From Amoebophrya sp. A120 (taxonomy: Eukaryota > Protista > Dinoflagellata), in the NCBI GenBank assembly GCA_905178155.1, contig CAJINV010000006.1, positions 688,398-752,397 of the forward strand: a stretch of 64,000 nt of DNA. The letters run 5' to 3'. The position numbers and the translations under genes were made by a program. Under the pieces are notes generated by a model. That model made no database searches, had not been told where the DNA came from, and saw nothing but the letters and a program-made list of their open reading frames with translations. Positions 3,155-59,325 of the stretch are shown in pieces. Position 1 is the first letter of the stretch. The number at the start of each line of letters is the position of its first letter.

Positions 3155-6100
3155 TATGAATGTGTCAGGATCGAAATCGACAAAATCGAAATGATTTGTC
3201 ATGCAAAAAACGGATTCCAGTTCGAAGTCGAACCCAGTTTCTTATTGGCGCATGACAAATTCTGGTGGTGCCTAAATCCAGTTTGTGACGCTGTTTAGCC
3301 AAAAAAGACTGATTCTCTCATGCTGCTTCAGCAGCTCGACCTATATAACCCCAAGCAGGCTTTTTACAATCGGCCTCACTTGCCTGCTCTGCAACACACG
3401 TATTTCGCGTCATGCATTTTATGCATCACAAGTTTTTCGATTTTGCCAATTTCGATTCTGACACTTCCATATCGTCCAGCCGCCACCTCCACCACTAAGC
3501 ACGCCGGCCCTGCTATCCTGAGTAAAAACGTCCCCACACCAGAGTTGTCATGCAGATTTGCCATGACAGGAACATTTGTGATGCGCAACCCCATGACAGG
3601 CATTTCCAATCGTGTTTGGGAACTTGTAATGCTGTAAACAGGATCAGCAGATCGATTTGTGATGCGGCTTTCCTTGCTAACTTGCACTACCTCACGGACT
3701 GAAACTTGTCATGCGTGACTCACAAAACTCCTAGGTTTGTGTTGCAAAATCCCCATCCTGACTCAGGTGTGGGTACGTTTTTACTCAGGATACCTGCCCC
3801 CGTCGAGCGGGATTTCCTGTGTGGGCGTCCCGGTTGAGTCAGATCTTCCCCTATCCAGGTGCAGCGCGGAACCCTTCGGGGCCGCGCCGACCTACGCCTT
3901 CCGAGGTCCGGCCCAGAAACCAGATTTCGCCGGGTTGTTCGCCCTGCTCGGGCGGGGAAGTAGCAGGTACAACCACCCCTGGGTACGGTTCACGCATTTC
4001 CGCCTAGAGGCAGCGGGCGGGCACGCGATCGCGAGGGCGGACTGGGATAACTTTTGGCGGGACAATATCCTGAGCAAAAATCTCTCCACCCCATAGTCCT
4101 CAACTGGGGAATTCTGCTAGACAAATCTACGAACTTAGGGTGTTGCGCATGACAACTTTGGCCTCGTAGTGAAATGCTGTTTAGCTCGCTCCGAAGCATC
4201 ACAAATCTAGCCCACTATGCTGATTGGAGCATTACAAATTCCAAAACACGACTAGGAATTGCTTCTCAGCATGGGTCTCCGCATGAGAAACATTTTGAGC
4301 CTGCGTTTTTGCATTACAAGCATGGGGTGGGGACGTGTTTACACAGGATAGACAAAACCGCGCGGCTCCACGACGCCAGCACGTTCGACGCAGCGGTCGC
4401 AAAGTCTTGCGGGGAAGTTTCCGAAACGCTTTGCGAGGCCGCTGACGTGCTGTTTCAGCTGCTGCAGGCGCGGCCCCGGACCAACCCGGATAGGGCGCGG
4501 GCGGTAAACCCTCACTGGGCAAGCTGGCTCACCACCGGCGACATCGATTATCTATCCGGCCCCAACCGGGACTGCAACCAGGAGGTCCTGACCAACTTTG
4601 AATGGGCGACGGTGGCCAAATATCCTGTGCAAAAGTATCCGATACTAGTATAAATTGCAACACCAATAATTCACTTGGCATTACAGATTAGATTTGCAAT
4701 GTTGCGGATCTGCCTTAATGTAAAGAGATTTGTAATGCATAAACGCAATCAGTATCAGAGTACGATACTTTTGCAATGCATACCAAAGACCAGGCGTGGG
4801 ACAACTCAGTGGCGCTGCACCACGTGAAGAAGGTCGATTGTGAGCCACGCTTTGTGAACAACTGGTGCAGGGTGGCGGAAAGTTTGCTGGGAACCGACGT
4901 TCTAGTCCTCCCCGAGGTAGAGAAGATGTGGGCGGAGTACGAGACTTTCCGGGAGGGAAACGGCTGCATCCGGGCGCTAGCTCGCGCCGAAACGGAGGGC
5001 GGTCCGGTCCCGCTACGAACGGAGACAACGAGCAGCACCCCGGTGCCGGCGGTGCCGGTTCCGAACCCCATGAACTGGGAGGACCGCATTCAGCCGACCG
5101 TGTTTAACAACTTACTCGACCCCGCGCAGCCGGACAGTCTCTTGTTGGAGGAACAGTTTACCCGGACGGAAAAAACTATGAAAGTGTCAGGATCGAAATC
5201 AACAAAATCGAAATAATCTGTGATGCATAAAACCGATACCAGTTGGAGCCTCAGTTTCCAAGTGGCGCATGACAAATTTCGGGAGCCCGGAAGTCGCGTC
5301 TGTCATGCTGTTTGGGCAAAGAAGGCTGCTCCTGTCATGCTACTCTGGCATCACATCTCCTTCCCCTGAACAGGCTGGCAAGCGGTCTCATTTGCTTGCT
5401 TCCCAACACAGGCCCTACGCGCCCTGCATTTTATGCATTACAAGTTTTTCGATTTTGTCGATTTCGATCCTGACAATCCCATAAAAACCTTGAAGAATAT
5501 CCGCGACGTTGTGCAGTCGGAAGTCGTACCGCAGTGCGAGGTATCAAATGCAAATATCCCTGGATGTCTGGAAGAACGCAACTTGTGATGCTGCGTTTGG
5601 ATTCCAAAAAAAATCTGTATTGCGTGAGCAGTAAAGGGAATGCAATTTTTGCAACGCGGAGTAGAGGGAATTTGTCATGCGGATTAGGCATTAAGAAGGC
5701 CTCAAAAAATCTGTGATGCTAGGAAATGCATCACAGACATCATGGCTCATGCAAAACGTGCATGACAAGGCTCAGAATCTTCCAGACCCAGACTTATTCG
5801 CAATGCATACGAGGCCTTGAAGGATAACACGCAGTTTGCCGTGACCAACTCCCTATCCTGTGCAAAAGTATCGTACTCGTATTGCCGTCATGCATTACAA
5901 ATCTTTTTCTTGAGGTAGTTCAGCATAACAAATTTTATTTCTCATGCTGAGGAAATTTGTAATGCATTTATAGTACGAGTGCGATACTTTTGCAATGCAT
6001 ACTTCCTCGCGCTAGGGCTCGCGGTGACGCCGAAATGCGACGGGTGCGAACCGCGACTGAACGAGTGTTGGGGGCAGTGCGGGCTGGAGGGCAAGCCAGG

Positions 6101-9100
6101 TAACGCGAACCGAGGCGGGTGGTGTAGTATTTGCGATCCGGTGCACAACCCCTACAACCTGAGAGGCGCCTGTTGCAAGTTTGAATTTACGGAGAATATC
6201 AACTGTAAAAATGTCTGGGTCTGGAAGATTGGAACTTGTGATGCTAACTTCGGACTGTAAAAAAATCTGTATTGCATGACCAGCAAGAGGAGTCTAGTTT
6301 GTGCTACGCGGGGAGGGCGTTTGTCATGCGCAGTAGGCATCGGGCAGCCCTCTCAAAATCTGTGATGCGCGGTCGTGCATTACAGACATCCTGGGTCATG
6401 CAAAACATGCATGACAAATCTCAGAATCTTCCAGACCCAGACATTTTTACATTTCATAGAGAACGGCGGCAAGCAAGGCGACGAATGCGGGCGGGTATCG
6501 CAAGAAAAAAGTGTTACAGTTACACACATAGTCTATGCAGGCCAAGCAAGACAGACCAGCTCTGTAATGCCGGATACGCATAGAAGCCTCGTTCTTTCAT
6601 AGGTGTTTTCCCGTAGGATTTCTGCATTACAAGTTTTCTCTCTCATGCTGAGAAATTTGTGTTGCTGAATTGACTACAAATGTGTAACTGGAACACTTTT
6701 TTCCTGGGATAGCGGGTTGAGGTCGAGCAGTACGTGTCGCGGCACAAACCCTACGAGGAGCGGTATCCTGAGTAAAAACGTCCCCACCCCAGATTTGTGA
6801 TGCAGTTTTGCAATGACAGGAATCGATTTGTGATGCGCATCCCCATGGTAGGCATTTTCAATCGTGGTTTGGAATTTGTAATGCTGTAAACAGGATCAGT
6901 AGATGGATTTGTAATGCGGCTGTTCCAGCATTGCTAAGTAACCTTTGCATTACACTACGGACTGCAACTACCAAATTGTCATGCGTGACTGCCAAAGTTT
7001 CTGGATTTGTGTTGCGAGCGCCCCAGCTTGCCTCTGGGGCGTGGGCCCCGTTTTTACACAGGAGAACCGGTGGCACGAGTGCGTGATTCCGGATCTGAGC
7101 CTCCGAAAATTCCACGAACAAATCTTCCCCCTGCGCCCGGTGCGGGGTATTCTCGGGATCCCGAAGTGCCGGATGTGCGGGGAGCGGGTGCGCGAGTGCT
7201 GGGACGCCTGCAACCGCATCAGCGGCTACTGCGACGCATGCAATTCCGTGGACTACCTCACCGGCTTCAAGTTGCGGGGCGCGTGCTGCCGACTGGACGA
7301 CGCCAGCGATGCAGCCGAGTGCAAAAACGAGGTCGACACGGAACAATATTTCACGGGGGCGTCGTATGGAGCCGTCAGGTTTGAAATCGTCAAAGTTGAA
7401 ATACTTTGTCATGCAGAAAATGGATGCCAGTTGGACCCCAGTTTCCAAGTGGCGCATGACAAATTTTGGCTGTGCCTAAATCCCGTTTGTAATGCTGTTT
7501 AGGTACAGAAGACTGATTCTCTCATGCTACTTCTGCAGTTCGAGCTCTAACCCCAAACAGGCTTACAATCGGCCTCACTTGCCTGCTCTGCAGCACACGT
7601 ATTCCGCGTCATGCATTTTACGCATGACAAATCATTTCAACTTTGACGATTTCGATCCTGACGCTTCCATACGTCGGTTCCGACGGAGGCGCGGCGGCAC
7701 GAGTGCGTGATCCCCAAGTTGCAGGCCCAGTGGCCGTATGCATTGCAAATTCGTCTGGGTCTGGAAGGATGCGAACTTGTAATGCTGGTCTCGCAAAAAT
7801 CCAGTTTAATCTGTATTGCATGTTGATCAACAAGAAAAGTCGCAGTGCCTCTTTGGTCACACAGAAACGCAGTTTCTCATGCGAGCTGCGTATGGGAGAG
7901 CGTTCTGGGAACAAGTTGTCATGCTTCCCTGCATCCGAAAGTGTAGTTTCCATCATCCACACTTCAGCATCACAAGTTTCCAGACCCGGGCGTATTTGCA
8001 ATGCATAGGCCGGAGTGGAAACGAAAACTGATCGACGCGTCGACCGCCAACGCCGCGGGGTCGAACGTGCATATGAGAGTGCACACCCCCCCCTCCCCTC
8101 ATTTGTCATGCAAAAAGCCAATTCCACGTCCTGCGTTGCAGCACTGTCTGCATGACAAATTTTGGAACCTCAGTGAGTACTGCAGATTATTTGTCATGCA
8201 GAAGGCCCATATCTGCCATTGCTTGTGTTGCTGCTCAGGCACTTCAAATGAAAGGACGGGCGGTCGTGCACTGTGATAGTGCACCGAGATCTGCGCCACA
8301 CGCTGCTGCAGCCCGCGTGGCCGCAGAATGTGATCCACGTCGACACCGATTACGTCAGCCAGCAGATTGGGCTATCAAGTGTAAAAATGTCTGGGTCTGG
8401 AACTTTGCTAGACTTGTCATGCAGGTTTTCCATGACCCATATAATCTGTAATGGAGGACCTAGCATGACAGATTCCGTGAGATCAATATCATGCCTATCC
8501 TGCATGAGAAAGTGCCTCTCAACTTGATCAAAAGTGGCCAGCATTTGCAAATCATGCAACACAGATTTTTGCATGATTCAGATTTAGCATGACAAGTTCC
8601 AACCTTCCAGACGGAGACATTTTTGCAATCCATACGGGCCGCACCGCTACTACGAAAACACGGGTGGGACGGTCGAGACCTGGGACATGTTCATGCTCGA
8701 CGAGAATCACTGGAAGCTTACGAACATGAAAAACCGGGTTTTCGCCGACTGCATGAAAGAGAAGGTTGCGGACCTGCTTCTGGCGAACGCGAACAGCAAC
8801 GTGCATGGGTGGAGCGGCATGGTACAGATGCACCCCGCTGTGAACGGGGACGTGCCGGGAATTAAAACCGAACCAGTCGAACCGTTCACGGAGGATAGGT
8901 TATTCTACTCCGGACCGGCGAGGCTGACCATCCCAGCCACCTACTACCCGACCAACCCGCGGTGCAAAGTGTGGCGGCGGCAAGAGGGGATTCGCTTTGA
9001 CCTGGGCGAGATTTGCGTCGTTGACACGACCGAGACATCTCCATCTAGCTCTGGGATCGCCCACGCGGTTCCCGCTGAAAATTTTGACGCCGCGCTGAAA

Positions 9101-12100
9101 ATTTTGGACCCGCCGCGCAACCGCGATGATGATGCACCGCTGCATCGCAGGTGCAAAGAGGCGCTGGTATACATGAATGATTGGCTGGTGCGAACGGAAG
9201 TGCCTTCGGCCCAGGAACTCCGCGGGAACGGGAACGACCGGCTGCCGGCGTTCAGCAAGCGGCAACTGGCGCAGGACACCTCGGTGGACGCGATTTTTCC
9301 GGGGGAGTACCTGGATTTGGCTGCATTGGGTAGTAGTGCCAGCCGTGCGGAGTGGCTCGAGACGGTAAACAACGACCGGATGGCGGTCGATGTGCCGGAG
9401 GAGGAGTGGAAATGCTTATCCATTGCAAAGGTAGCGTACTAGTTGTCGGAAACGCATTACAAATTTGCAGCTCAGCATGAGAAATCAAATTTGTAATGCG
9501 AATTTAGCTCAAGAAATTGATTTGTAATGCAAAAATGCAATTACTACGAGCACGATGCTTTTGCAGTGCATAATGCAAACTGATTTGCGACTCCATGGAC
9601 GACTGTGTGGGCTACTGGCTGTACCGGCGAGCCGATTCGGACGGAAAATGCCACCTCTTCGGCAACCGCGTCCGCTCGTTAATTCCTTTCCACAACGCCT
9701 GGACGTCTGTTTGCGTATAACCCGCTCAGGTGTTACAATCTCAGGCGTTACACTAGAGTCTGAGATTTGTCTTCCATGATGAGCATGACAGGCTCGCAGA
9801 GCGTTCCACTTTCTGCAATACAAATTTCGCCAGATTGTACTGGGGTTTGGGGCTCCGGAAGAACTTGTCATGCGCAATCCTATGAGATTTGGCTGGAGCA
9901 TGCACTTCTTGCATCACACATTTCCAGACTATATTGTAGCGTTTGAGATTGTAACACTTGAACGGGCTATATTGCGAAGACCGATTTTTCGCTTTGCCGG
10001 ATGGGTTGAAGATCATGAAAGACCCCCGGTTATGCATTGCAAATCCGTCTGGGTCTGGTTGGACGACCGCAAGATTTGTCAAGCAGGTTTTCCATGACCC
10101 ATGAGGTCTGGAATGCAGCACCTAGCATGACAAATCCTGTGAGATGATCTTCCCTCTCACCTATCATGCCTACCCTGCATGAGAAAATCCCTCTCAACTT
10201 GGTAAAAACGGGGGGCTGTTATGGTAAGCATGCAAAAGAGATTTTTTGCACGATTCAGATTTAGCATGACAAACTTGCACTCCTCCAGACCCCGACATTT
10301 ATTTGCGTTTGATACCGGTACAGCAACTCCTCGGGCCCGTACTACCTCCACGCGCTGCCGTATGGATCGAAATTGAGAAAATCGAAAAATTTGTGATGCA
10401 TAAAATGTAGGACACTGAAGGCCTGTATTGGGGAGCAGGCAAATGAGACCGATTGTAAGCCTGTTTAGTGGTATGCGATGTGCTGCCAGAGTAGCATGAC
10501 AGGAGCAGTCTTCTATGCCCAAACAGCATGACAGGCTGGATTTGGGTGCTCCCGAAATTTGTCATGCGCCGCTTGCAAACCGAGGCTCCAACTGGTATCG
10601 ATGTTATGCATCACAGGTTTTTCGATTTTGTCAATTGCGATCCTGACACTCCCATATGCCGCACCTCACGAAGAAGCCGCGCACCGCGGCAGAGGTGGCC
10701 GCCGCGGCCGAGGCGCGGGCGGTGGCCAGTCCGTACGACCCCAACAGCAACGATGCGGGGGCGGAAAAGCAGCCCTACCCCACCACGCCGTCGGTGGTCG
10801 GGTATGCGACCTTTGCACTGGAGGATACGGGAGACTTCATTCAGTGGCCCGCGCTGGAATACAGCATATCTATTGCAAAAGCATCGTAAGCTAGTAGTGA
10901 TTGCAATACAAATTTAGCTCAGCATGACAAACGGAATTTGTCATGCTGATTTAGCTCGGGAAAGAGATTTGTATTGCATGACTGCTATGAAAGCTTTTGG
11001 ACAGGATACAGCAACGCGAACTACCTGAAGCCGCATGAGGACGCGCGGTCGTCGGCCTGGTACGTGCGCTATGGATTGCAAACATGTCGGGGTCTACTTG
11101 AAGGATGCAAGGTTTGTCATGCTCGTCTGGCATGACTGAAGAGTTTGTGATGCGTGTCCAAGAAGAAAGTCTTTTGCTTGTCATGCAAAAACGGAGTTTG
11201 TCATGCGGAAAGCGCAACTACACGTAGGCACGCAAATTATTTCTCATGCTTGTCTGCGCATTACAGACAGCATTCACTACTTATTCACAACTCAGCATCT
11301 TCACAAGTTCCCAGACATTTGCAGTTGATATGCGCACCGCCACGGCAGGGTTGAAAAAGAACATCGTGATCGCGGTGGATTACTCGGTATCAAATGTAAA
11401 AATGTCTGGGTCTGGAAGAATCCAACTTGTCATGCTGATTTTGGATTCTAAAAAAATCTGTATTGCGTGAGCAGCAAAGAGAGTCCAAGTTTTGCTACAC
11501 GGAAAGAGCATTTGTCATGCGGTATAGGCATCAGGAAGCCCCCACAAAATCTGTGATGCTAGGGCATGCATCACAGACATCAGGAGTCATGCAAAATGTG
11601 CATGACAAAGACAAACCTGGCAATCTTCCAGACCCAGACATTTTTACATTTGATACTCGGGTTCGATGCGATCCGACGGCAAGTGGGATGCGGCCAAATA
11701 TCAAACGGAAAAATCCCCCTTCCACACGTCAAAACGAAGTTTCTGATGCTGGATTTCCCTACACAAATCAGAGCTGTCTTGCAGTAGAGGACTGCAGGCA
11801 TATGCCGTGCCTGAGTTGTACAGAGCTTGTGACGTGGACGCTTAGCATCACAAATGTCTGCGCTTTAAAGCCCAAGCAGCATGAGAAACCGTCCGCATAA
11901 TGCGGCGGAGACTGTAGAGTCGGCTTCTTGCAAGACAAAAAGATTTGTGGTCACAAATCAGCATTAGAACTTGTGCCTTTTTGACATGGGGAAGAGGGAT
12001 TTTTCATTTTGATACCAAAGAGGCTGTCTACATCGTGCTGGACTCGTTAACCGAGGGGGACCGGTTTAACCTCTTTCTCTGGAACGGGTACGTGCAATTG

Positions 12101-48100: not shown

Positions 48101-51100
48101 TCCAGACCCAGACATTTTTACATTTGATAAGCAAACAGATCCGGAAACAAACGACGTGATTCCATACAACTTACCCTGTCCAATAGACTGTGTGTTGCAC
48201 GAATGGGCGGATGACATTTACCACACTTGTGACCAAAAGACCTGCTGGACGGCGGCGGAGCAGGAAGCGCGAACAGCGGGTGAAAACAGCACAAACAGCA
48301 CATCCTCTTCCTCCCAACTGACGAAGCACCAGCACCGCGCCATCAAAGTCAACGGGCAGTTTGGCGGGGTCGAGTGTCCTATCAAATGCCAAAGTGTCTG
48401 GGTCTGGAAGAATGCGAGCTGTGTCATGCTAGTCTGGCACGACTCTTAAATCTGTCATGCACGACGTTACCCAAGAGCCCCATTTTGCTGTCATGCAGAA
48501 ACGCAGTTTGTCATGCAGAATAGGCAACACCAAGAAGCTCAAAAGCTTGTCATGCTGAGCCAGCACTTGTGGCCTCTTCATGATACGCCACCCAGCATCA
48601 CAAGTTTCCAGACCCAGACATTTTTACAATCCATATGCCCGGCCGCGGATTCGGAAGAACGGGAGAGAATTGTGGACTGCGACTTGGACCACTTGCCCAT
48701 ATGCATTGCAAATATGTCTGGGTCTGGAAGAGTCTAACTTGTCATGCTATATCTGGATCGTGGAAAAATTTGTGTTGCATGATTACCAAAAGAGGTCCAC
48801 TTTTGAACAAGTTTAGGGGCAGGTTCTCATGCAGGAAAGGCATGATAGAGATCTGACAGAACCTGTCATGCTAGGCCGTGCATGCCAGACCGCGTGGGTC
48901 ATGGAAACCCTGCATGACAAGCCTAGCACTCTTCCAGACCCAGACATTTTTGCATTTGATAGCCCACCTGTCCAATCGATTGCGTCTTGTCGAATTGGCA
49001 CGACGAACCAAATGCCGTGTGTTCCGCGACCTGCGGCCCCACCGGGCGGTATCGGCGGGTGCGGGAAATTTTGGTACAGCCACAGGGGGAACTGGCGAAA
49101 ACGTGTTTATATGCACTGCAAAAGGATCGCTCTCGTACTAATTGCAATAAATGCATGACAAATCGCCCGTCTTAGACAGATCAGCATTACAAATTTCATA
49201 GTCTTGTTTGGGAAAAAATTGTATATTCGATTCATACTTAGTACGGTGCTTTTGCAAGGCATAGCTTGGAAGTAGCCCCCACGACAACCTCCACTAGTTC
49301 CACTTCAGCGGAGGTGGTTGTGCCGACCCCGAGCCCTGGAGGAAGTAGTAGTACCACCGGCAACCCTCTTTTCCCGACCCCGAGTCCGAGTCCGAGTGGG
49401 GGCGGAATTCCAGTATTTCCGAATCCGACTCCGGGTGGGGGCGGATTTCCGGTAATCCCAACTCCTGGACCTGCCAGCACCCTTTTTCCCGGTCAGCCCG
49501 TCACCACGTATCCTGAGTAAAAACGTCCCGACCCTAGAGTTGTCATGCAAATCTGCATGCCTAAAAACATTTTAAAAATGTTTCTCATGCGCAACCCCAT
49601 GAGCAGCGCGACTTTCTCACACTGTCTGGTACTTTGTCATGCGCTAGTCAGGATAGGGAGCTGGATTTGTGATGCGACTTTACTAGCCAATAAACACCAC
49701 TACACTAGAGACCCAAACTTGTCATGCGCAACAGCCAAAACTTGCTAACTTGTGTAGCACGAATCCCATCTTGACTCTTGGGTGGGGACGTTTTTACACA
49801 CGAGACCACGCCACCACCCTTCACGTGGGCGCCCGCGTTCCCCGTTGTTACAACGCAAGCACCAGTATGACAGTGCACAACCTCCCCTCCCCCTCATTTG
49901 TATGGCATGAACAGCAACACAAGCAACAGCAGAAAAGGGGCTTTCGCATGACAAATCTTCATGCGGATTGTTGTACTTCTTGACGTTCCAAAATTTGTCA
50001 TGCTAGCAGTGCTTACGAGCAAGATAGGAATTTGGTACTTTGCATGACAAATGAGGGGGAGTGGGAGTTGTGCACTGTCATAACCCGGCGGGGGAATTCC
50101 GCAGCCCGAAGCGCCCCCCGTGCGAACCACGCCACCGGCGAACACGTGGACGCCAGTGGAGACGCTTTCGACGTTCCCGCCGATTCCGCAGCCGGAAGGA
50201 CCCCCGCCGGTTAACACGCCAGCGCCGTTCACATGGACGCCATCTTTTCTACAGCTGGAAGCTTTGATGTCTCGCCGCGACGATCCAGCTGCTTCGACGG
50301 TGTGGTTGGAAGAACTCGTCCCCTGTAACACGGAGATCCAGTGCGAAACAGATGTCGACGGAGGTGGTGGTCTCACCATTTCCCCCACGCCTGACCAGAC
50401 TAACGGAACAACTTCGGGGGGGGGAGATGATGATGCAGGCGGTACAAATACATCTCAAACTCCCCTGTCTAATTCAGCGACGAAAGGACCGGAGGCCCAG
50501 CAGCAGCAAGTGTCGGAAATCGTGTTTAGCAACGACATATCAAATGGAAATATGTCCGGGTCTGGGAGGATGCGAGGTTTGTCATGCTTGTCTGGTATAA
50601 CTGAAGAGTTTGTGATGCGTGTCCAAGAAGAGACCCTTTTTCTTGTCAGGCAGAAATAACGCAGATTGTCATGCGGAAACTGCAACGCTAAGCAGCGCAG
50701 ATATTTCTCATGCTTGGCTGTGCATTAGTACAGAGCATTCACTATTCCCAACCCAGCATTACAAGTTTCCAGACCCAGATATGTTTGCAGTTGATACGAC
50801 ACCAGGGGCTTGGAAGAGGGCGGTGAAGAAGAGGGCACAGAAGATGAGTCGAACACTATCAAAAGAAAAAATCCCCCCTCCTCATATCAAAATGAAGTTT
50901 ATCATGCTGGATTTGCGTACACAAATCAGATTTGTCTTGCTGGCGAGGACTGCAGGCCCAGATGAAGCCTGAGTAGACAGGTTTTGGCCTAGGCACTTAG
51001 CATGACGCACGTCTACGCTGTAGGAGCAACAGCATGACAAACCGCCTGTAGAATGCGGCGGAGCCTGTAGAGTTGCCGCCATGCAACACAGAGCCGATTT

Positions 51101-54100
51101 GTGGTCACAAATCAGCTATACAAATTTTCGAAATGCACGTACCTGGTCAATATGGGGAGGGGGGATTTTTCCTCGCGATAAACACGGCCCTCGACGCCGA
51201 TGACACCGAATGCAACCCTATCCTGTGTTAAAACGTCCCCACCTCATAGTCGGGATTGGAAATCTGCTAGACAAATCAGCCAGCTTTGGTTGTTGCGCAT
51301 GACGCGTTTGGCCTTGTAGTGTCTGTCATCCTGTTGAGGTAGTTAAGAAGCAGCACAGATCTAGCATATCGTGCTGACTATAGCATCACAAATTCCAAAA
51401 CGCGACTAGGGAATGCTTGTCATGGGGCTCCGCATGAGAAACATTCTGGGCATGCAAAATTGCATGACAACTATGTTGCGGCTGGGACGTTTTTACACAG
51501 GATAAACCCGGTGCTGATTCTCGTCGCACTTTTAGTGATTGGGCTACTCGCCCTCGCTGGTGTCTACTTTATGTTCAAGGAATTCTTCTTTCCATCGTCT
51601 TCATCTCCAACTGCTGCGCCATCAAACGCTTCGCCGCGATCCTCCGGACAAGACGCTCAAAAGAAAAACAAGAAGCGACTACCAGGAAGGCAGGAGAAGG
51701 CGGCCAATTTGCAGGCGGAATCTTTACTCGCCGGACAAACCGCCGTGCCAGAGAAAGCGCTTCTGTCCGCGGGCTTTTCCTATCAAATGCAAAAATGTCT
51801 GGGTCTGCAAGGTTGGAACTTGTCATGCTAAATCTGAATCACGCAAAAACCTGTGTTGCATGATTACCAAACGCTGCCCACTCTTGATCAAGTCGAGAGG
51901 TAGTTTCTCATGCGGGATAGGCATGATAGTGATCTCACGGAACCTTTCATGCTAGGTCCTCCATTACAGATCATATGGGTCATGGAAAACCTGCATGACA
52001 AGGCAAGCAAAGTTCCAGACCCAAACATTTTTGCAGTTGATATTTCCCCCGGCTACGCCAAAAAGGCTGCGAAACAGATCGCGAAAGCCGACGAACTACC
52101 AAAAGATGCTACATTAAGTAAGCCGGACAGCGACGCGGATAGGAAACTGTTAAAAAAATTGCACAAGAAGATCAACAAACAAAAGATCAAAGACGCGGAA
52201 GAAGCCGGGGAAGAAGAGGTATCGAATGTAAAAGTGTCTGGGTCTGGAAGAATGCAACTTGTCATGCTAAATCTGCAGCATACAAAAAGCTGTGTTGCAT
52301 GATTACCAAAAGTCGTCCAGTTTTGACCAAGTCGGGAGGCAGTTTCTCATGAAGGATAGGCATTAGAAAGGTCTCGCAGAATCTGTCATGCTAGCTCCGG
52401 CATTCCAGACCTCATGGGTCATGGAAAAGCAGCATGACAAATCGCGCATTCTTCCAGACCCAGACATTTTTACACTTGATAGGAGGTGGAGATAAGCAAA
52501 ACGCCGACTATTTCCGAGGTGAAACATTACCTCGCGGAAAAAGTGAAGGAGCAACTCGGCCAGGATTTTCTCTTAGAAGCGACGGAGAAGGTAGAGAAAT
52601 TAGACGTCGCAACAATGTATCAATTGCAAAAATGTCTGGGTCTGAAAGGTTGGAGCTTGTGATGCTAACTCTGGACTCTAAAAAAATCTGTGTTGCATGA
52701 TCAGCAAGAGGAGTCTAGTTTGTGCTACGCGGGGAGGGGCATACATTTGTCATGCGGATGAGGCAGCAGGAAGCCCTCCAAAAATCCGTGATGCTAGGTC
52801 ATGCATTACAAACAGCCTGGGTCATGCAAAATATGCATGACAAACACAAACCCGGCAACATTCCAGACCCAGACATTTTTGCATTTGATACAATGGAAAA
52901 AATGCTCCTCTCCCAGGGGTTCAGTCCGGGTACAGCGAAAAAGCTCGCTCCGATTATGACCTGCTCAAACGTTACAATCTCAAACGTTACAATAGAGTTT
53001 GGATTTTGTGTTGCATGACGAGCATGACAGACTCGGACAGCATTCCACTTTCTGCAAGACAGATTTATTCGCCAGATTGCAGTGCGGTTTGGGACTCCGG
53101 AACTTGTCATGCGCAACCCGATGAGACTTGACTACATAATGCACCTCCTGCATCTTCACAGATTTCGATATTCTATTGTAAGGTTTGAGATCATTGTAAC
53201 ACCTGAGCAGGTTATACCGATTATTCAGGAAAAAATGGTGGTGAAGGAGAAGGACAAGGTAGAAAAGCCGAGGTCTTCTGCCGCTTTGGCCGAGGGCGTT
53301 CCGGAAGAGGCCGGTGCGTATCAAAAGTAAAAATGTCTGGGTCTGGAAAAGTGTAAACTTGTCATGCAGATTTTCCATGATCCATGAGGTCTGGAATGCG
53401 GGACTTAGCATGACAGACTCTGCGAGGTCTCTGCCATGCCTATCCTGCATGACAAACTCCCTTCCAACTTGGTCAAAAGTGGACAGCTTTTGGCACTCAT
53501 GCAACACAGATTTTTGCATGCTTCAGTTTTACCATGACAAGTTGCATTCTTCCAGACCCAGACATTTTTACACTTGATAGTGCGGTCGCCGGGGAGCACG
53601 AAGTCGTCGTCGCGCCGCTTTTATCCTTTGCAAAAGTATTAGTAGTAATTGCATTTATGCATTACAAATCTTTTTCGCAAGGTAAATCCGCATCACAAAT
53701 TTTATCTCTCATGCTGAGGAAATTTGTAATGCATTTTTATACAAGAGTATCGGATACTACTTTTGCAGTTCATAGCTTTTCACCCCTGCGGAGATTATGA
53801 ATGTGAAAAAATCGATCTGGGACAGGAAGATAATTCTGAGACTTGTCATAGTCATACACGTTTATTTGCATGAGCAGCCATGACGTGGTCTGTGATGCAT
53901 GCCCTAGCATCTACTTCACAGTTTTTTTGAGGGATTCTCGATACCTATTTTTCCGCATGTTGACAAATGCCCCTACTGCCGCGTAGCAAAAATGAGAATT
54001 TTCCTTTTGCTGGTCATGCAACACAAATTTTTTAGACATCCAAATGCAGCATCACAAGTTGCATTCTTCCAGGGATTTTTGCAATCCATACAGATTGCGA

Positions 54101-57100
54101 GTCTGCAATTAGAGGGCCAGGATAAGGCGTTGTTCGAGCAGAACTTCGGAATCGACACCGTAAATCCGGAAAGCTTCGGGCAGCTGGAGGGCGCGAGTGA
54201 CAAACTCGCTTTTTTCCTAGAGGAAAAGCTCGGGTCGAAGTACAAGGAGATTTCCGATGGCAATACCGACGAGATGCTGCATGTATCCTGTGCAAAATTA
54301 TCGTACTCGTATTGCAATCATGCATTACAAATTTTATTCTGAAGCTAAATCCGCAATACAAATTTCATTTCTTATGCTGAGGAAATTTGTAATGCTAATG
54401 CATTTATACGGTTACGATACAACTTTTGCAATGCATAGCATGATATGGAGAAAGTCTTCACCGACGCTGGGTTTTCCGACGCGGTAGCGCACCACTTGGC
54501 GGAAAAAGCGAAAGAGGACTTGCTCCACTCCGCGGTGTCCATCGGAAAAAACATCGACTTGGGAAAGGTGGACAGATCGGACGAAATCTATCAATTGCAA
54601 CCATGTCTGGGTCTGGGACATTGCGAGAGTTTTCATGCTAGTTCGGCATGACTCTGAACTCTGTGCTGCGTGGCCGCGAAGAGCTCCTCTGGTCTGTCAT
54701 GCAAAAACGCAGTTTCTCATGCGAAGTACGCAACTCCGAACCACGAAAAAACTTGTCATGGTCGGCAGCGCATTACAGTGTGCTCACTATTCCCTTTCTT
54801 GCATCACAAGTTTCCAGACCCAGACATTTTTGCAATGCATAAAATCTTGCTTTTGACGAAAACGGAAATGAAACAGATCGAGGCGGTGACGGGCCGGAAT
54901 TCGTGGGCACAGATATTACAATGAAAAATGCCCCCACCCCCGAACTTGGGAGCATTTGTATTGCAAACCTTTCCAAATGAAACATTCGCCCTCTTGCATC
55001 TATCAGCATCACAGGTTTCCAATCGTAAATAGCAAAAAATTGTATTGCAAAAGTCCCCAGCAAGAGATGCGCTTGTCATGCAAGCGACGCGATACACCCC
55101 TAGACTCTGCATCAGAAAGATTCATACTCCTTTCATGCATGACAAAAAGTTTTCATTTGGAAACTCCGCATCACAAATTTTTGCAATTTCAGGGGTGGGG
55201 GACACTTTTCACTGTAATAACAGAAGGACGGCGTCGAGGCCGAGCACCGCGACACTCTAGAAGCGAATTTCAAGCTGCTGGAAGAGCACTTTCTTTTCGA
55301 CGACGCGCAGGAAGAACTGGCGATGGATATGGTGAGAAAAAACGTCTGCGCCCCAGAGTCAAGATGGCAAATCTGCTACACAAATCAACCAGCTTTTGCA
55401 GTTGCGCATCAGAAATTTGGGCTCGCAATGTAAGTAGTCGTGTTTCGCTAGTGAAGCAGCATCACAGATGTAGCACACCATGCGGATATGAGCATCACAA
55501 ATCGCAAAACACCAACAGAAACGGCTTCTCATGGGTCTCCGCATGAGAAACATTTCCAGCATGCAGATTTGCATTACAACTCTGGGGTGGGGACGTTTTT
55601 ACAAATGATAATGGAACGAACTAGCACCGCGTCACCGGTGCTCGACTCGAAGAACAGCTCAGCGCAAAATAAATTGAACTCTTCGGCCAGTGGTCAGCAC
55701 CAGCAGCACCCCTCGGATGTGCGCACCCTGATCGCGCAGGACCTGCGGGAGAAATACAATGCTATGGATCCCGATACGCATATCCTATGTAAAAACGTCC
55801 CCACCCCATAGTCAAGATGGGCACTCGGCTAGACAAATCCGCAAGTTTTGGATGTTTTGCATGACAAATTTTGACTCGTAGTGTAGTGCTGTTTGAGCTA
55901 GCTCAGCAGCATCACAGATCTAATGCATCATGCTGATTGGAGCATGACAAATTCCAAAACACGACTAGAAAATGCTTCTCATGGTGCTCCGCATGAGAAA
56001 CATTTTCAGCGTGCAGATTTGCATGACAACTCTGGTGTGGGGACGTTTTTCCTCAGGATAACGCAGAAGTCACAGATGACCCCGGAAAATATCCGTGCGG
56101 ACATTGCAGACTATCCTGTGCAAAAGTATCGTACTCGTATTGCAATCATGCATTACAAATTTTTTTCTTAACCTTAATCAGCATTACAAATTTTATTTAT
56201 CATGCTGAGGAAATTTGTGATGCATTTATACGAGTACGATACTTTTGCAGTTCATACAGATGCGTTGGTGACGAAAGTCGGGTTTTCCAAGAATTTCGTG
56301 GAAAAAGCGAATTTAGCGGAGAAGCTGGAACAGAAACTCCACACGGATTTGGTGACAAAATCTGGGGAAAAGATGAGTAAAATGCTCGCAAGCGACTTTG
56401 ACGACATGTGGGATCATGATCAGGACGACCTGAACATGCACATTTACCAGTCTGTCAAGGAAAAGCCTGCAGAAGTGCGGAACCTAATCGCGGAAGAGCT
56501 GAAAGAAAAGTACTCAACCCTGGATCCCGAAACGCAGAAACTGCAAATGACACCCGAGAACATCCGCGCAGATATCGAGACCGCGTTGGTGACGAAGCTC
56601 GGCTTCTCGAAGAATTTTGTGAAAAAGGCGAAGATAGCGGAAAAGATGGAACAGAAAATGAACACCGATTTGTTGGTGACCACAAAGGACGGGCAGCCGC
56701 AACGAACGAGTCAGATGTTCGCGCCAGATTTTGACGACCTGTGGGACCACGACGAGCTGAACATGCACATTTACCAAACCGGTGGGAAAAAATCTCCAGA
56801 GCAACAGCCCGGAAGCAGTGGGACGACAAAGTCAGAATTGTCCCCCGGTAGTTATCAAATGCAAAAATGTCTGGGTCTGGAAGGTTGGATAACTTGTGAT
56901 GCTAACTCTGGACTCTAAAAAAATCTGTATTGCATGACCAGCAAGACGAGGAGTCTAGTTTGTGCTACGCGGGGCGGGCCTTTGTCATGCGGAGTAGGCA
57001 TCAGGAAGCCCTCTAAAAATCTGTGAGGCTACGTCGTGCATTACAGACATCCTGGGCCATACAAAATATGCATGACAAACCAGACAACATTCCAGACCCA

Positions 57101-59325
57101 GACATTTTTACATTTGATAGTAGTGGTGCCGCCGACGCCCAACCTCTCCTCGGCGCGGAAACGATCGGGGGGGAGACCAGTTTCGGGAAAGTGGAGACAT
57201 TGAACGTGATTCAGGGGTTTACCATGATGAAACCGCTGAAAATAACCGCGCAGGATTTGGAGGGCAGAAATTGGACGGAAAAGGACAAAAAATTGTTGCA
57301 GAAAAATTTCCTGAAGAAAACCAAGATGGTGCACGACATGGAGAAGAAAATGCACGAGAAAGCCATGGACAAGGTCCGAGAAAAGCTCACGATCAATCTC
57401 CAAGACGATTTTGAAGGGGAGGCAGAGGCAGACGATTTCGACGAGGGGGAAAGCGACCTTAGCAGCGCGGAAGAAAGCGAACAGTCTGATGCGCCGGTGG
57501 AAATTGCGGTAGACAGCGAAGGGGGCGAATCTTCGGCCGCCGAACCACTGCTGGGGAGCAACAACAGCGTCGAGAAAAAAAAGAAGAAGAAGGACAAACT
57601 CTTGAAGAAAAACAAAAAAGCTGCTGGTGATCATCCGAAAAAGAAGAAAAAAATCGGGGATTCATCTGCAAGTGCCGAGAACAAAAGTGCAGCTCATGAG
57701 GAAGCGGACAACGCGGCAGTAGGAGAAGAGGCAGAACAAGTTGTTACCATCGAAGCTGCATCTCTCCCGGGAGAGAAGACGGCAGGAGTAAGCGACATGT
57801 ACGACGAGATGTTCGATGATCAATCCTCCGCGCCGCTGCCCGACAGTAGGACCACCGACCCCCAGCCCGCTTCTCTTTCCGCCGAACAGCTCCACCAGGC
57901 GTTTGAGGCCGAAGCCAGGCAAGCTCTAGAATCCATCGGCTTCCAGAAAGCCACCGCGACCAAGATTGCGAAGCAGCTGGTGGCGACTGGAGCCGACTTA
58001 TCCACTGCAAATGTTTCTGCGTCTGGAGTTAGGTGAAACTTGTGACGCTGTCTCTGGATTCAAAAAACAACTGTATTTTTGCATGACCAGCAAGAGGAGT
58101 CCAGTTTGTGCTACGCGCAGTGGGCATTTCTCATGCGGAATAGGCATCAGGAAGCCCTATAAAAATCTGTGATGCTAGGTCACGCATTACAGGCACCACG
58201 GCTCATGCGAAATATGCATGACAAACCTGCCATCAATCTTCCAGACCCAGATGACATGTTTGCAATGCATAAGACTTAGGTGTGGACAAAATGGAACTCG
58301 GCGAGGCGGAGATAATCACCGCGACGCAGGGCTTCCAAAAAGTGGCGGGGAATAAAAAGAAGAACATCAAGATAGAAAATCTCCAGGATTTAGCTACTGA
58401 ATTAATCTCCTGCAGACCGGAGATCTTTGTCAAGTCTTTATCCCCCACCTCCTTCGCCGCCTTCGAGCACGACAAGCAGGCAGGAACCGTGATGAGCATC
58501 TTGCAGTTATCCTGAGTAAAAACGTACCCACACCAGAGTCAGGATGGGGATTTTGCAACACAAACCTAGGAGTTTTGTGAGTCACGCATGACAAGTTGCA
58601 CTCTGCAGTGTAGTGCAGCTTAGCAAGTGCAGCCGCGTCACAGATTTATCTGCTCATCCTGTTCACAGCATCACAAATTCCAAAACACGACTGGAAATGG
58701 CTCTCATGGAGATGCGCATTACAAGTCTTCCTGTCTTTGCAAATCTGCATTACAACTCTGGTGTGGGTACGTTTTTACTCAGGATAGCAGTCCTGCATGC
58801 TGCAGTCGGGGCTGCACGGGGGAGCAGGTTTATCGCAAGAAAAAACTGTTTCACTGTAAACTTGTAATGCAGAAAGTGTATCTCAGAAGTGTTTGTCTTG
58901 CGTCACAGGCAAGACAGGCGATTTTTAGCTGTGTTTTCCCTTGGGATGAACCTCGCATGGTAAGTTTTCCCTGTCGTGTAGTAGAGCAAACTTGTGATGC
59001 AAAACTTGCAAAATGCTTACAGTGAAACACTTTTTTCGTACGATAAGGTTTGAGCGACGGCATGACGGCGTACGAAGCCCCTGCTCCAGCTGAAACCGCC
59101 GCGGAAAAAAAGAAGAGGATTAAGAACCAGGTCGCGGCGCAGAAAGTGAAAGCGGGTCAACAAGAAAAATCTGCAAATGAGGAAGAGTCCTCAGTGGCGT
59201 CTTCGACCAAATCGACTAAATCGAAGACGAAAAGTGGAACATCCAAGTCCGGGAAAACGACGAAGACGAAAACGGCTTCGTCCGCCAAATCGAAAACCAA
59301 GACAAAAACGGGTTCCAAGAAGTGA
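1166..59325 (+). CDS. Giant type I membrane adhesin-like protein (~8,250 aa, ~110 exons): signal peptide, Cys-rich/PAN modules, VWA+Cache, ~60 TSP1 repeats, EF-hands, Apple domain, TM helix, long cytoplasmic tail
   Basis: ATG 1166 with hydrophobic signal peptide MAHYSFFLVYLLLLLQALHA. Deleting each TAT..ATA element plus one 5-bp direct repeat joins ORF fragments in frame, e.g. ...WRD|KTARL..., ...VDYS|GSMR..., ...HDGNT|DGDTIRCPIDC. Span 58,160 nt minus 33,410 nt of introns (hand sum) = 24,750 nt, divisible by 3. Stop TGA ends at 59325 after ...TKTGSKK. Confidence 0.88.
3155..3471. mobile_element. Introner family B (TIR TATGGAAG(T/C)GTCAGGAT(C/T)GAAATCG, ~300-318 bp); representative, 9 copies
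   Basis: TSD tcgtc. Others: 5177-5483 (aaaac), 7365-7671 (cgtcg), 10361-10656 (tgccg), 14022-14328 (tgctg), 27632-27942 (cgggc), 32233-32459 (ccctg, internally deleted), 34326-34643 (gccca), 43528-43833. Confidence 0.92.
3514..3792. mobile_element. Introner family C (TIR TATCCTGAGTAAAAACGT(A/C)CCCAC, ~280-300 bp); representative, 16 copies
   Basis: TSD cctgc. Others: 4066-4350, 6764-7065, 12997-13276, 13692-13970, 14805-15085, 18025-18303, 35018-35299, 39794-40072 (near-identical to this copy), 42136-42417, 43877-44155, 49509-49805, 51219-51504, 55328-55610, 55781-56060, 58508-58786. Confidence 0.93.
4621..4782. mobile_element. Introner family D (TIR TATnnnnTGCAAAAGTATCGTACT, ~142-163 bp); representative, 13 copies plus 1 decayed
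   Basis: TSD ccaaa. Others: 5854-6001, 9417-9572, 10867-11008, 33174-33329, 36768-36930, 43304-43455, 45815-45964, 46487-46635, 49110-49263, 53622-53774, 54284-54437, 56112-56256; decayed 40992-41161. Confidence 0.92.
6496..6711. mobile_element. Introner family E (TIR TATCGCAAGAAAAAA.TGT, ~215 bp); 4 copies
   Basis: TSD gcggg. Others: 24806-25020, 36238-36450 (attgt), 58831-59045 (aggtt). Confidence 0.88.
9716..9971. mobile_element. Introner family G (TIR TATAACCYGCTCA..GTTACAATCTC, ~252-262 bp); 3 copies
   Basis: TSD ttgcg. Others: 30906-31157, 52955-53216 (ccgat). Carries subterminal tandem GTTACAAT motifs. Confidence 0.88.
10800..15150 (+). CDS. alpha2delta/CACHD1-like VWA_N + VWA (MIDAS) + Cache-like region of the giant protein
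   Basis: Spliced translation: FIQWPALEYSNANYLKPHEDARSSAWYVRTATAGLKKNIVIAVDYSGSMRSDGKWDAAKEAVYIVLDSLTEGDRFNLFLWN...TNIESALSFGL...RLLLLTDAE...ACLPVTYSPPSAARLGVLCLDLSL. DxSxS, TN..AL and LLTD are VWA hallmarks. D.R..WY before the VWA and GV.xxDl after it match alpha2delta-type Cache architecture. Confidence 0.75.
11388..11655. mobile_element. Introner family A (TIR TATnnnTG(C/T)AAAAATGTCTGGGTCTGGAA, ~253-305 bp); representative copy, 44 copies in giant gene
   Basis: TSD ctcgg here. Other copies: 5542-5809, 6197-6458, 7737-8007, 8373-8634, 10031-10314, 11070-11330, 12256-12517, 12662-12937, 13330-13591, 14385-14645, 15754-16008, 16134-16397, 17343-17607, 17681-17935, 23149-23424, 24161-24430, 24498-24761, 25747-26008, 26047-26314, 26372-26634, 28505-28766, 28828-29132, 29217-29476, 31379-31631, 33653-33926, 33969-34231, 35837-36097, 37615-37875, 38193-38456, 43001-43255, 46170-46433, 47867-48129, 48380-48635, 48700-48961, 50538-50796, 51781-52042, 52220-52481, 52618-52890, 53319-53579, 53796-54090, 54589-54841, 56853-57119, 57999-58271. 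Several distinct internal subtypes. Confidence 0.93.
15348..15670. mobile_element. Introner family H (TIR TATCAAAAGGAAAAATCCCCCCTCCCCATAT, ~310-324 bp); 11 copies
   Basis: TSD acggg. Others: 11699-12014, 16524-16845, 16899-17220, 23758-24074, 27156-27466, 31732-32053, 37136-37456, 40106-40418, 45051-45360, 50857-51180. Confidence 0.92.
16870..50345 (+). CDS. Array of ~60 thrombospondin type-1 (spondin-like) repeats
   Basis: Recurring CP(V/I)DC..S.W..W..CS.TCGGG...RTR......HGG..C......C unit across exons; about 60 CPxxC starts counted by eye. Confidence 0.93.
18357..18650 (+). repeat. Left long TIR of composite element
   Basis: Pairs with 22814-23086; the ORF track shows the same peptide LRNIQIGC.ELLPTGSRRLYQ.ATLAKALGTWE on opposite strands. 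Confidence 0.9.
19412..19459 (+). repeat. Perfect 24-bp tandem duplication at the left cargo junction
   Basis: gtgcgaatagcacaccgtgggtgc x2, running directly into a 5'-truncated family A TIR (tgcaaaaatgtctggg). Confidence 0.85.
19715..22560 (+). pseudogene. Captured fragment of another gene (histidine-phosphatase-like motifs plus a TSP1-like unit), frameshifted
   Basis: Exons join in frame after removing nested introners 19775-19928 (D), 20434-20715 (C), 20793-21047 (A), 21811-22073 (A) and 22130-22450 (H). Motifs YLVSPLRRAME, LVPQLRE, KVVILVTG, PVNCELEQGYDGGWSPCSC. One apparent 1-bp loss near 20210-20212. No start or stop; bounded by truncated A copies 19457-19714 and 22561-22811. Confidence 0.7.
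22814..23086 (-). repeat. Right long TIR of composite element
   Basis: gctcccaggtgcccagcgctttggccagcgtagcac...ccagacattctcgcacttgata is the reverse complement of the left TIR, with indels in the AT-rich part. Confidence 0.9.
27960..28115 (+). CDS. EF-hand pair inserted in TSP1 array
   Basis: DHDSNGSGDLDEAEI and FDRDKNGKVSLAEW fit the DxDxxGxxxxxE loop; a further EF-like loop IDADKGGYIEEQEY lies at ~35715-35765. Confidence 0.75.
30724..31220 (+). CDS. PAN/Apple domain inserted in TSP1 array
   Basis: CDFEHGVDYYGGDI...EQCRVRCENMPECTAFSW...NCAVK|RLA...GGKC: typical Apple pattern C..GVDY.G.D..C...C....C..FS/T...C.LK. Confidence 0.8.
39169..39764 (+). other. Canonical GT-AG intron (596 bp), the only clear one in the giant gene
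   Basis: atcg|GTATAA...taactaat...AAACAG|atacc gives WVFDIDTCTKSCGGG, matching the paralogous WVSDIDTCAASC. No 5-bp TSD. Confidence 0.8.
39434..39706 (+). repeat. ~120-bp imperfect direct repeat inside the canonical intron
   Basis: gctttcctcg..ctccggatcggcccc..aagtacctccaggacgatcccca..ctaagaactagccc..cagtctcc..ttgcaaaacccgcat.acagatga at ~39434-39552 and ~39586-39706. Confidence 0.85.
47334..47506. mobile_element. Singleton introner (own subterminal inverted repeat)
   Basis: TAT..ATA ends, TSD gccga, inverted tcccgtgcacgacgt / acgtcgtgtacggga; frame restored (CGAD|GVVEQ). Confidence 0.8.
47610..47829. mobile_element. Introner family F (TIR TATGAGAGTGCACAAC, ~207-222 bp); 4 copies
   Basis: TSD gaagt/caagt. 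Others: 8072-8278 (gtgca), 32546-32767, 49866-50082. Confidence 0.88.
51511..51576 (+). CDS. Single transmembrane helix of the giant protein
   Basis: VLILVALLVIGLLALAGVYFMF followed by K and later KKNKKR (positive-inside). Confidence 0.85.
54914..55219. mobile_element. Singleton introner (TIR TATTACAATGAAAA..CCCCACCCC, distantly H-like)
   Basis: TSD acaga; ends ...ggggtgggggacacttttcactgtaata; frame restored. Confidence 0.82.
55709..56790 (+). repeat. Two tandem ~105-aa repeats in the cytoplasmic tail
   Basis: VR.LIA..L.EKY...DP.TQK.QMTPENIRADI..ALVTK.GFSKNFV.KA..AEK.EQK..TDL...DFDD.WDHD..LNMHIYQ occurs twice. Confidence 0.85.

Follow-up and report, generated by a model that had tools for sequence, protein, structure and literature searches.

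A gene of Amoebophrya sp. A120 split by 107 introner elements, including a 4.73-kb composite

The introner elements of the dinoflagellate Amoebophrya sp. A120 were described by Farhat et al. 2021 as introns bounded by inverted repeats (TAT, seven variable nucleotides and AAA) and by direct repeats of 3-5 bp (5 bp in the legend of Fig. S19), with a mean length of ~240 nt and no GT-AG consensus, mixed with canonical introns (PMC7789003). That survey covered only introns with lengths of 40-1,000 bp (PMC7789003). Gozashti et al. 2025 reported A120 DNA introners with terminal inverted repeats (TIRs), 150-320 bp in length and present as tens of introns in a single gene, in addition to some families of 0.7-1.2 kb (PMC12130899); in the accompanying dataset, A120 family 38 is labelled Ginger, with a 5-bp target site duplication (TSD) and TA/TA termini. 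The introner trait is confined to some strains (PMC12005148). Here we analysed a 64,000-nt window of A120 (assembly GCA_905178155.1, contig CAJINV010000006.1, positions 688,398-752,397, forward strand), in which a single open reading frame (ORF) is interrupted by 107 such elements. They are the introner elements of Farhat et al. 2021, known in kind and an extreme test case.

The end profile of the elements reproduces TAT-N7-AAA, and they share with the introners of Farhat et al. the boundary repeats of 3-5 nt (5 bp), the repeated families without a transposase and the variable splice dinucleotides, with no difference in kind. The kinship suggested in the initial annotation is thus borne out, as these elements, with their end motif and 5-bp repeats, are already in print (PMC7789003; PMC12130899). 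What goes beyond the accessible text of Farhat et al. is the presence of 107 elements in one ORF, a phased internal motif, a bound on the cut register and an element longer than 1,000 bp. No gene-capturing composite is present among 41 of the 58 A120 rows in the dataset of Gozashti et al., and the likeness to those families is one of description. The nonconventional introns of euglenids also possess a TIR hairpin, TSD-like repeats, non-canonical junctions and a proposed origin from MITEs (miniature inverted-repeat transposable elements), but they belong to another lineage and differ in their CAG/CTG pairing and pyrimidine/purine junctions, and circular products have been demonstrated for them (PMC11282704). 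Introners of Micromonas and Aureococcus and the non-canonical introns of Fritillaria are likewise MITE-derived and restore the exon through the TSD (PMC7789003; PMC11282704), whereas they keep or co-opt fixed splice dinucleotides, GT-AG being usable at only 5 of the 107 junctions here. Regarding the transposon class, the TA..TA termini are shared with IS3EU-GingerRoot and the 4-5-bp TSD with Ginger2; however, the TSD of IS3EU is usually 6 bp, and there is no transposase here to classify by (PMC10045372). Our literature search, mostly at the level of titles and listings and with subscription papers largely outside it, found no internal motif, no gene-capturing introner and no excision chemistry for Amoebophrya. 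Within that literature, the scale, the cut inside the repeat, the phased motif TGTVATGC (V being A, C or G), the 4.73-kb composite with a foreign gene fragment and the GT-AG intron from a decayed element were not found in print.

We searched blind for TAT...ATA segments 60-600 bp long between two exact copies of a 5-bp direct repeat and obtained 81, 78 of which passed a filter for terminal complementarity (at least 10 of 20 terminal bases), compared to a mean of 0.23 and a maximum of 2 in 100 dinucleotide shuffles. Elements with imperfect repeats or ends were added by a nearest-neighbour scan of ends. At the host level, the region 3155-59045 contains 106 small elements with lengths of 142-324 bp (median 264), in addition to a composite of 4,730 bp, which itself holds five complete and two truncated further elements. 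The resulting 107 removals are close to the 108 elements initially counted, and the counts carry little ascertainment bias because a continuous ORF means that no frame-breaking element was missed. The elements occupy ~56% of the gene span. TAT...ATA ends and a 5-bp repeat had been ascribed to each of them, which holds as a general rule: 79 of 107 elements have an exact repeat, 24 have one mismatch in it and 4 have two, and the tips deviate at 6 of 214 ends. The 112 elements of 142-324 bp fall into 15 clusters with no internal transposase, nor was a transposase found elsewhere within the window. All 10 clusters with at least three members occur in both orientations, indicating that the element signals are symmetric.

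Once the elements, 5 nt with each, and two GT-AG introns are removed, one ORF of 8,248 aa extends from an ATG at 1166 to a stop at 59323-59325; the gene therefore runs beyond the span of 3155-59045 first assigned to it, which also left out the GT-AG introns. In a scan of 0-8 extra nucleotides per removal, only element plus 5 nt is stop-free, in line with the frame restoration that the initial annotation saw at the junctions it traced, whereas 178-227 stops arise with 0, 1, 3, 4, 6 or 7 extra nucleotides, one with 2 and three with 8. Moreover, 39 of the 107 junctions lie inside TSP1 repeats, where the best hidden Markov model (HMM) score is obtained with element plus 5 nt at 29, plus 8 at 6, plus 2 at 3 and plus 11 at 1. 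The rebuilding of a DYS/GS motif, noted in the initial annotation, was also confirmed, at element 11388.

Six cut registers give this seamless product. Across them, 5 of 107 junctions allow GT-AG ends, 8 allow GT/GC/GA-AG and 1 allows AT-AC, with 16-80 distinct dinucleotide pairs per register; the earlier statement that no GT-AG ends are shared is right for the seamless registers, apart from these few junctions. The elements do not have the GT/GC-AG ends expected of U2 introns, and the direct repeat shows no base preference beyond exon composition. Of the five junctions that bear the example repeats for which the initial annotation saw no in-frame GT/GC-AG pair, four do have such pairs within 15 nt, but these alter the protein, and a public protein (P0121, below) uses the seamless form at the two that it covers. 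When cuts were shifted within 6-21 nt, in-frame GT/GC-AG pairs were no commoner than in two off-frame controls (at 9 nt, 49 vs 56 and 45), and nearby shifted sites were rejected as the true splice sites.

The two copies of the repeats differ at 32 of 535 positions, comprising 19 synonymous changes, 12 residue changes and one stop. The synonymous share exceeds the neutral expectation of 24-31% (p<=0.001); with one copy unconstrained and only synonymous change allowed in the other, 38-47% would be expected (p=0.01-0.12). At 3% neutral drift, 26-31 stops are expected in the gene, and none is seen. Purifying selection has acted after insertion, and the gene is alive; the initial annotation had also considered a dead gene riddled with MITEs, which the synonymous excess and the absence of stops contradict. 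A search with exon 56259-56849 retrieved P0121 (CAD7953218.1, GSA120T00013472001, 1,683 aa), labelled Amoebophrya sp. A120 and 100% identical. It corresponds without gaps to the last 1,683 aa of the spliced protein, agreeing at 28 of 28 junctions. Gene models of A120 were built from transcript alignments, as ab initio tools failed on the non-canonical sites (PMC7789003). Removal from RNA is thus likely, supported indirectly by the frame, by selection and by P0121, and also by the published RNA-seq validation of 66,565 A120 introns, 65% of them non-canonical.

Sequencing runs add the following. Run X1 behaves as DNA, with exon contigs at 43-47x that carry attached element ends at the same depth as plain exon. 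The summed X1 depth on elements reaches ~5.6e5, which is no copy number in itself and points to thousands of element relatives. Contigs of X4, X9, X10 and X3 searched against 26600-38200 gave a few exact exon pieces (30454-30610 in X4, 26741-27012 in X9), with no listed joint across an element. The sparse RNA cover is no sign that the gene is silent.

The spliced product is likely a very large, adhesin-like TSP1/vWA surface protein, as judged from its predicted domains. Single exons match Pfam TSP1_spondin, EF-hand and PAN_4, and the 62 TSP1 repeats were counted with an HMM trained on homologous repeats only (400 of 842). The vWA region was assigned by eye from the rebuilt DxSxS motif of a metal-ion-dependent adhesion site (MIDAS); the one exon of it that was tested had no Pfam match and no credible PDB match. 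We take the combination of vWA-like region, TSP1 array, EF-hands, PAN domain, membrane helix and charged tail to be reminiscent of apicomplexan TRAP/MIC adhesins. Exon 1 (window 1166-3154) is the longest and free of elements, and the first tenth of the coding sequence has 3 junctions, compared to 24 in the third. Only three inter-element stretches lack an open frame: the GT-AG introns lie in two of them, and the composite's right half makes up the remaining one. Exon 8636-9412 found no match among 1.84 billion representative sequences; exon 29477-30898 matched, among the 120 of 656 matches listed, only generic TSP1 proteins at 29-37%; and a search for related loci with the largest exon confirmed none.

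Comparison of nearest relatives revealed a bipartite end structure, in which a near-invariant TAT tip (1.4% mismatch at positions 1-3) is followed by a variable segment (24.6% at 4-10) and a conserved A-tract (7.2% at 11-15), compared to 9.1% at positions 16-30 and 14.6% in the interior. In the predicted minimum-free-energy fold, the ends pair with each other in 100 of 107 elements; an example hairpin has z = -10.7. Three junctions are informative on the cut register (Table 1): two exclude register 0 and one excludes register 5. The cut is therefore probably placed inside the repeat, 1-4 nt in, rather than at the element edge, if one register applies throughout. This bound agrees with the legend of Fig. 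S23, in which inverted repeats lie 1-5 nt from splice sites (PMC7789003). Register 1 fits the published top nine A120 dinucleotide pairs at 20 of 107 junctions, compared to 8, 4, 1, 0 and 0 for the others, a match that is aligner-dependent and only a hint.

In the interiors of the 107 elements, TGTVATGC occurs 345 times, compared to 2.2 in shuffles. It is absent from 24.7 kb of exon, where chance predicts 1.1-1.9 copies; avoidance by exons was rejected, as this difference is not significant. A relaxed form is present in all 112 elements, pointing inward at 30-50 nt from 128 of 224 ends and outward from 40. Neighbours in the same direction lie 31-33 bp apart 128 times vs 7.3 by random placement, a control that overstates the significance because related copies inherit their spacing. 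With the motif masked, this spacing recurs in the four largest lineages (28/34, 14/17, 8/9 and 6/9 elements). Since 31-33 bp corresponds to three helical turns, the spacing together with the strand symmetry suggests a protein that binds double-stranded DNA, and the simplest reading is that the motif is a putative sub-terminal binding site of the transposase. The motif was rejected as a general mark of introns, GT-AG intron 2 having it through its element ancestry.

Pack-MULE and Pack-CACTA elements have long TIRs around a captured host-gene fragment, as does the composite at 18357-23086. It has TIRs, a TSD and a coding cargo with introners of its own; neither an exon search nor Pfam revealed a homologue of the cargo or its donor gene, no whole genome having been searched. 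Compared to Pack-type elements, it sits inside a live exon, would have to leave as one intron and has its cargo bounded by trimmed introner ends. The site is the linker between two TSP1 repeats. The terminal 22 nt are those of the commonest small family, and the 1,361 bp of arms and spacer contain no motif copy. Inside it lie non-coding DNA (~0.8 kb) and part of another gene. For the host ORF to be continuous, the composite has to be removed in full together with 5 nt, and removal as one unit is inferred because the frame then stays open over 5,900 codons downstream. If the cargo were read as exons between two chimeric introns, it would be in frame with the host at both ends (a chance of 1 in 9), with a stop at 20260. 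Reading 18357/19714 and 22561/23086 as two ordinary elements was rejected, given the mismatched repeats and the same stop. An X1 contig exactly matches the stretch with the frame change and stop, so the frame change is no assembly slip. The internal ORF of the composite has no Pfam match; its arm and the commonest end gave no match in viral and metagenome contigs; and Rfam gave none for the window at gathering score, with three sub-threshold matches in the composite arm. Most likely, a larger element captured a two-introner segment and later inserted here.

Further features were observed within the composite. About 550 read ends of X6 and ~500 of X7, both listed as RNA, match the 60-bp spacer piece 18726-18787 at 90-95% and run into unrelated flanks; this piece also has a high summed depth in X1 and no Rfam match. 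The spacer/cargo junction (window 19410-19457) carries a 24-bp tandem duplication with short palindromes, the last 10 nt of which recur at the inner edge of the left arm, which suggests a templated repair junction. Motifs in the cargo translation (20150-20270) are, we presume, reminiscent of a histidine-phosphatase fold split by the frame change, with no Pfam match; a hypothetical 35-nt GT-AG intron could in principle restore the cargo frame there.

GT-AG intron 2 of the gene aligned by blastn to six members of the 150-bp family with 72-79% identity over 43-67 bp, and on this sequence evidence it is a decayed element of that family turned GT-AG intron. Within intron 1, a 120-bp direct duplication (window 39434-39705) is 90% identical.

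Altogether, we hold with high confidence that RNA-level removal takes out each element and the equivalent of one repeat. As for the machinery, we propose with moderate confidence that A120-type introners are excised by a modified U2-type spliceosome that measures from the element ends. Non-autonomous inverted-repeat DNA transposons would insert in either orientation with a 5-bp target duplication, through an integrase-type (Ginger/IS3EU-like) DDE transposase encoded elsewhere, for which the phased TGTVATGC copies would most simply be double-stranded-DNA binding sites. In the pre-mRNA, TIR fold-back may bring the ends together, and the spliceosome, without a recognisable U1, would use the invariant TAT tip and the conserved A-tract at 11-15 as a ruler instead of reading GT/AG. 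It would cut the upstream repeat 1-4 nt in and the downstream repeat at the complementary distance; removal would yield the full-length 8,248-aa adhesin-like protein. We favour the spliceosome because nearly all of its proteins are retained in A120, along with four small nuclear RNAs (U2, U4, U5 and U6, U1 not having been found in the published inventory), because canonical and element introns share one transcript, and because a decayed element became a GT-AG intron here. The structure-guided, non-canonical system put forward in the initial annotation is retained as to a live gene with more than 100 base-precise non-GT-AG removals, but a new system is not supported, and guidance by the hairpin is possible, with no signature on the RNA strand.

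Several points weigh against this reading. The 5' 6,565 aa have no public protein match (two exons searched), so that ORF continuity is the only basis for taking the gene as a single transcript and for the removal of the 4.73-kb unit; a 3'-biased cover of the 24.7-kb message may be the reason. Among the joints listed (15 of 3,293 and 15 of 77) in a search of seven runs listed as RNA, guessed RNA or metagenome, no read or contig bridges a junction, and raw reads of X6-X8 against 5000-24999 match only element-like pieces at 90-99%, covering no exon. The conservation of the tips after insertion speaks for the reading (6 of 642 bases changed vs 19 expected at 3%), but the drift rate comes from the repeats and is not A/T-matched. 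The TIRs have 89 G-U vs 84 A-C on the transcribed strand (p=0.76), with nominal p ~0.04 in opposite directions for sub-windows, and sense and antisense folding are alike (p=0.17); this symmetry gives no support to selection of TIR pairing as RNA, and G-U asymmetry was rejected as a proof of it. Finally, the bound on the register presupposes that all elements share a single one, and four weak junctions (0.5-1.4 bits) conflict among themselves.

The main rival, possible although rather unlikely in our view, is a non-spliceosomal endonuclease and ligase guided at the RNA level by the terminal hairpin and releasing circles, as proposed for euglenid nonconventional introns. The strong fold-back, the orientation independence and the arbitrary junction bases agree with it, as does the precedent in euglenids, where TIRs and TSD-like repeats occur together with circular products (PMC11282704). 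However, TIR positions 4-7 pair only in 40-72%, leaving the stem base no clean ruler, and there is no G-U bias; in addition, the nearly complete A120 spliceosome and the GT-AG intron of element origin in this gene favour the spliceosome. More speculatively, a single element code might serve both jumping and splicing: a protein on phased TGTVATGC DNA arrays would mark introners during transcription and set the cut inside the target duplication, giving a DNA-marked, dinucleotide-free intron definition. We regard this as doubtful; if true, any insertion would be seamless, even a 4.7-kb composite with a foreign in-frame gene piece, and exon shuffling would be possible.

It is very unlikely that the polymerase skips each element by jumping between direct repeats across an extruded DNA cruciform, with no splicing at all. 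Such skipping would account for the exact loss of element plus one repeat, the strand symmetry, the phased motif and the absent RNA asymmetry, and the synonymous share slightly above the one-copy-free expectation fits it; but 28 of 107 repeats are mismatched, four of them twice, element sequence, some with flanks, occurs in runs listed as RNA (DNA carry-over possible), and we know of no precedent at such a scale. Hairpins with direct repeats are a classic substrate for template switching by reverse transcriptase, which could have produced the reported splicing if the gene were dead, as a whole or in its 5' part as far as the 4.73-kb insertion. Although the public model is confined to the 3' 1,683 aa and RNA cover is little, the 8,248 codons, free of stops and frameshifts to either side of the composite, the synonymous excess in repeat mismatches and the 62 intact TSP1 repeats make this highly improbable. 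Programmed precise DNA excision with transcription of an element-free copy, the other option of the initial annotation, fits the transposon anatomy and DNA-like motif phasing but is hardly credible, as in X1 contigs the element ends are still attached to exons at the depth of single-copy sequence, no precise empty site is among the 15 joints listed, and we know of no germline/soma split in Amoebophrya.

Outside the gene, a partial element of the 207-222-bp family lies upstream at the window start (6-162), 68-79% identical to elements 47610, 49866 and 32546. The 1.9-kb intergenic region 59326-61154 is free of elements and of the internal motif, and its contrast with the gene span is a hint of insertion or retention bias toward coding DNA. 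A second plus-strand gene (window 61175-64000) encodes a Gln/Pro/Ser-rich product with a CCCH-like Cys/His cluster at ~62780-62860, noted by eye, and no Pfam match; it holds one introner, 62958-63219, with an exact 5-bp repeat.

Table 1. Coordinates of the host gene, its introners and other features (window positions)
Feature	Position	Strand	Details
Host gene	1166..59325	+	110 exons, 16-1,984 nt, median 110 (from ORF and exon sizes)
Host protein layout (hydropathy, Pfam, HMM)			Hydrophobic N-terminus; vWA/MIDAS-like ~aa 1700-1960; 62 TSP1 repeats aa 2199-6803; two EF-hand regions; PAN domain; one predicted transmembrane helix ~aa 7081; charged C-terminal tail
Region matched by P0121	47200..59325	+	Identical across 28 junctions
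Intragenic duplicate	55776..56660	+	Sites of elements 55781 and 56112 are empty in the second copy; gapless vs first copy after removal of element plus 5 nt
Composite, 4,730 bp	18357..23086	.	Ends TAT..ATA; 5-bp repeat, exact; inverted arms of ~290 bp with 81% identity over 297 bp
Captured gene piece	19450..22818	+	1,541 nt without its introners; one frame change ~20200-20270
Cargo-bounding introners	19450-19714, 22561-22818		Each short of ~7-8 terminal nt
Complete introners in cargo	19775-19928, 20434-20715, 20793-21047, 21811-22073, 22130-22450		Five
GT-AG intron 1	39169..39764	+	596 nt; internal motif in 4 strict, 6 relaxed copies
GT-AG intron 2	40985..41162	+	178 nt; TAT/ATA tips lost; aligns to 150-bp family
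Register-informative junction	9412..9577	+	Keeping the whole upstream repeat gives a TAA stop; register 0 excluded at 9417
Register-informative junction	28823..29137	+	TSP1 cysteine only from downstream copy of repeat position 5, +17.5 bits; register 0 excluded at 28828
Register-informative junction	53791..54095	+	P0121 residue equals upstream copy of repeat position 1; register 5 excluded at 53796
73 host-level introners, exact 5-bp repeat and strong TIR (blind search)	3155..59045	.	3155-3471, 3514-3792, 4066-4350, 4621-4782, 5177-5483, 5542-5809, 6197-6458, 6496-6711, 7365-7671, 7737-8007, 8072-8278, 9716-9971, 10031-10314, 10867-11008, 11070-11330, 11388-11655, 11699-12014, 12256-12517, 13330-13591, 13692-13970, 14022-14328, 14385-14645, 14805-15085, 15348-15670, 15754-16008, 16134-16397, 16524-16845, 17343-17607, 23149-23424, 23758-24074, 24161-24430, 24498-24761, 25747-26008, 27156-27466, 27632-27942, 28505-28766, 29217-29476, 31732-32053, 32233-32459, 33174-33329, 33653-33926, 33969-34231, 34326-34643, 36238-36450, 36768-36930, 37136-37456, 37615-37875, 38193-38456, 40106-40418, 42136-42417, 43304-43455, 43877-44155, 45051-45360, 46170-46433, 46487-46635, 47867-48129, 48700-48961, 50538-50796, 50857-51180, 51219-51504, 51781-52042, 52618-52890, 52955-53216, 53319-53579, 53622-53774, 54284-54437, 54589-54841, 54914-55219, 55328-55610, 55781-56060, 56853-57119, 58508-58786, 58831-59045
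33 host-level introners, mismatched repeat, variant end or weak TIR (end scan)	5854..58271	.	5854-6001, 6764-7065, 8373-8634, 9417-9572, 10361-10656, 12662-12937, 12997-13276, 16899-17220, 17681-17935, 18025-18303, 24806-25020, 26047-26314, 26372-26634, 28828-29132, 30906-31157, 31379-31631, 32546-32767, 35018-35299, 35837-36097, 39794-40072, 43001-43255, 43528-43833, 45815-45964, 47334-47506, 47610-47829, 48380-48635, 49110-49263, 49509-49805, 49866-50082, 52220-52481, 53796-54090, 56112-56256, 57999-58271

How tens of thousands of Amoebophrya introns without GT-AG ends are removed is an open question (PMC7789003; PMC11282704). This locus sharpens the question without answering it, since one message needs 107 exact removals, and at 99% per removal only about a third of the messages would come out intact. 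At the 28 junctions whose repeats are mismatched, RNA reads would show the cut position directly, the internal motif provides a candidate signal that can be mutated, and the composite, with arms free of the motif, offers a test of whether end geometry alone suffices. These results also indicate that the public annotation covers only about one fifth of a very large TSP1/vWA surface protein.

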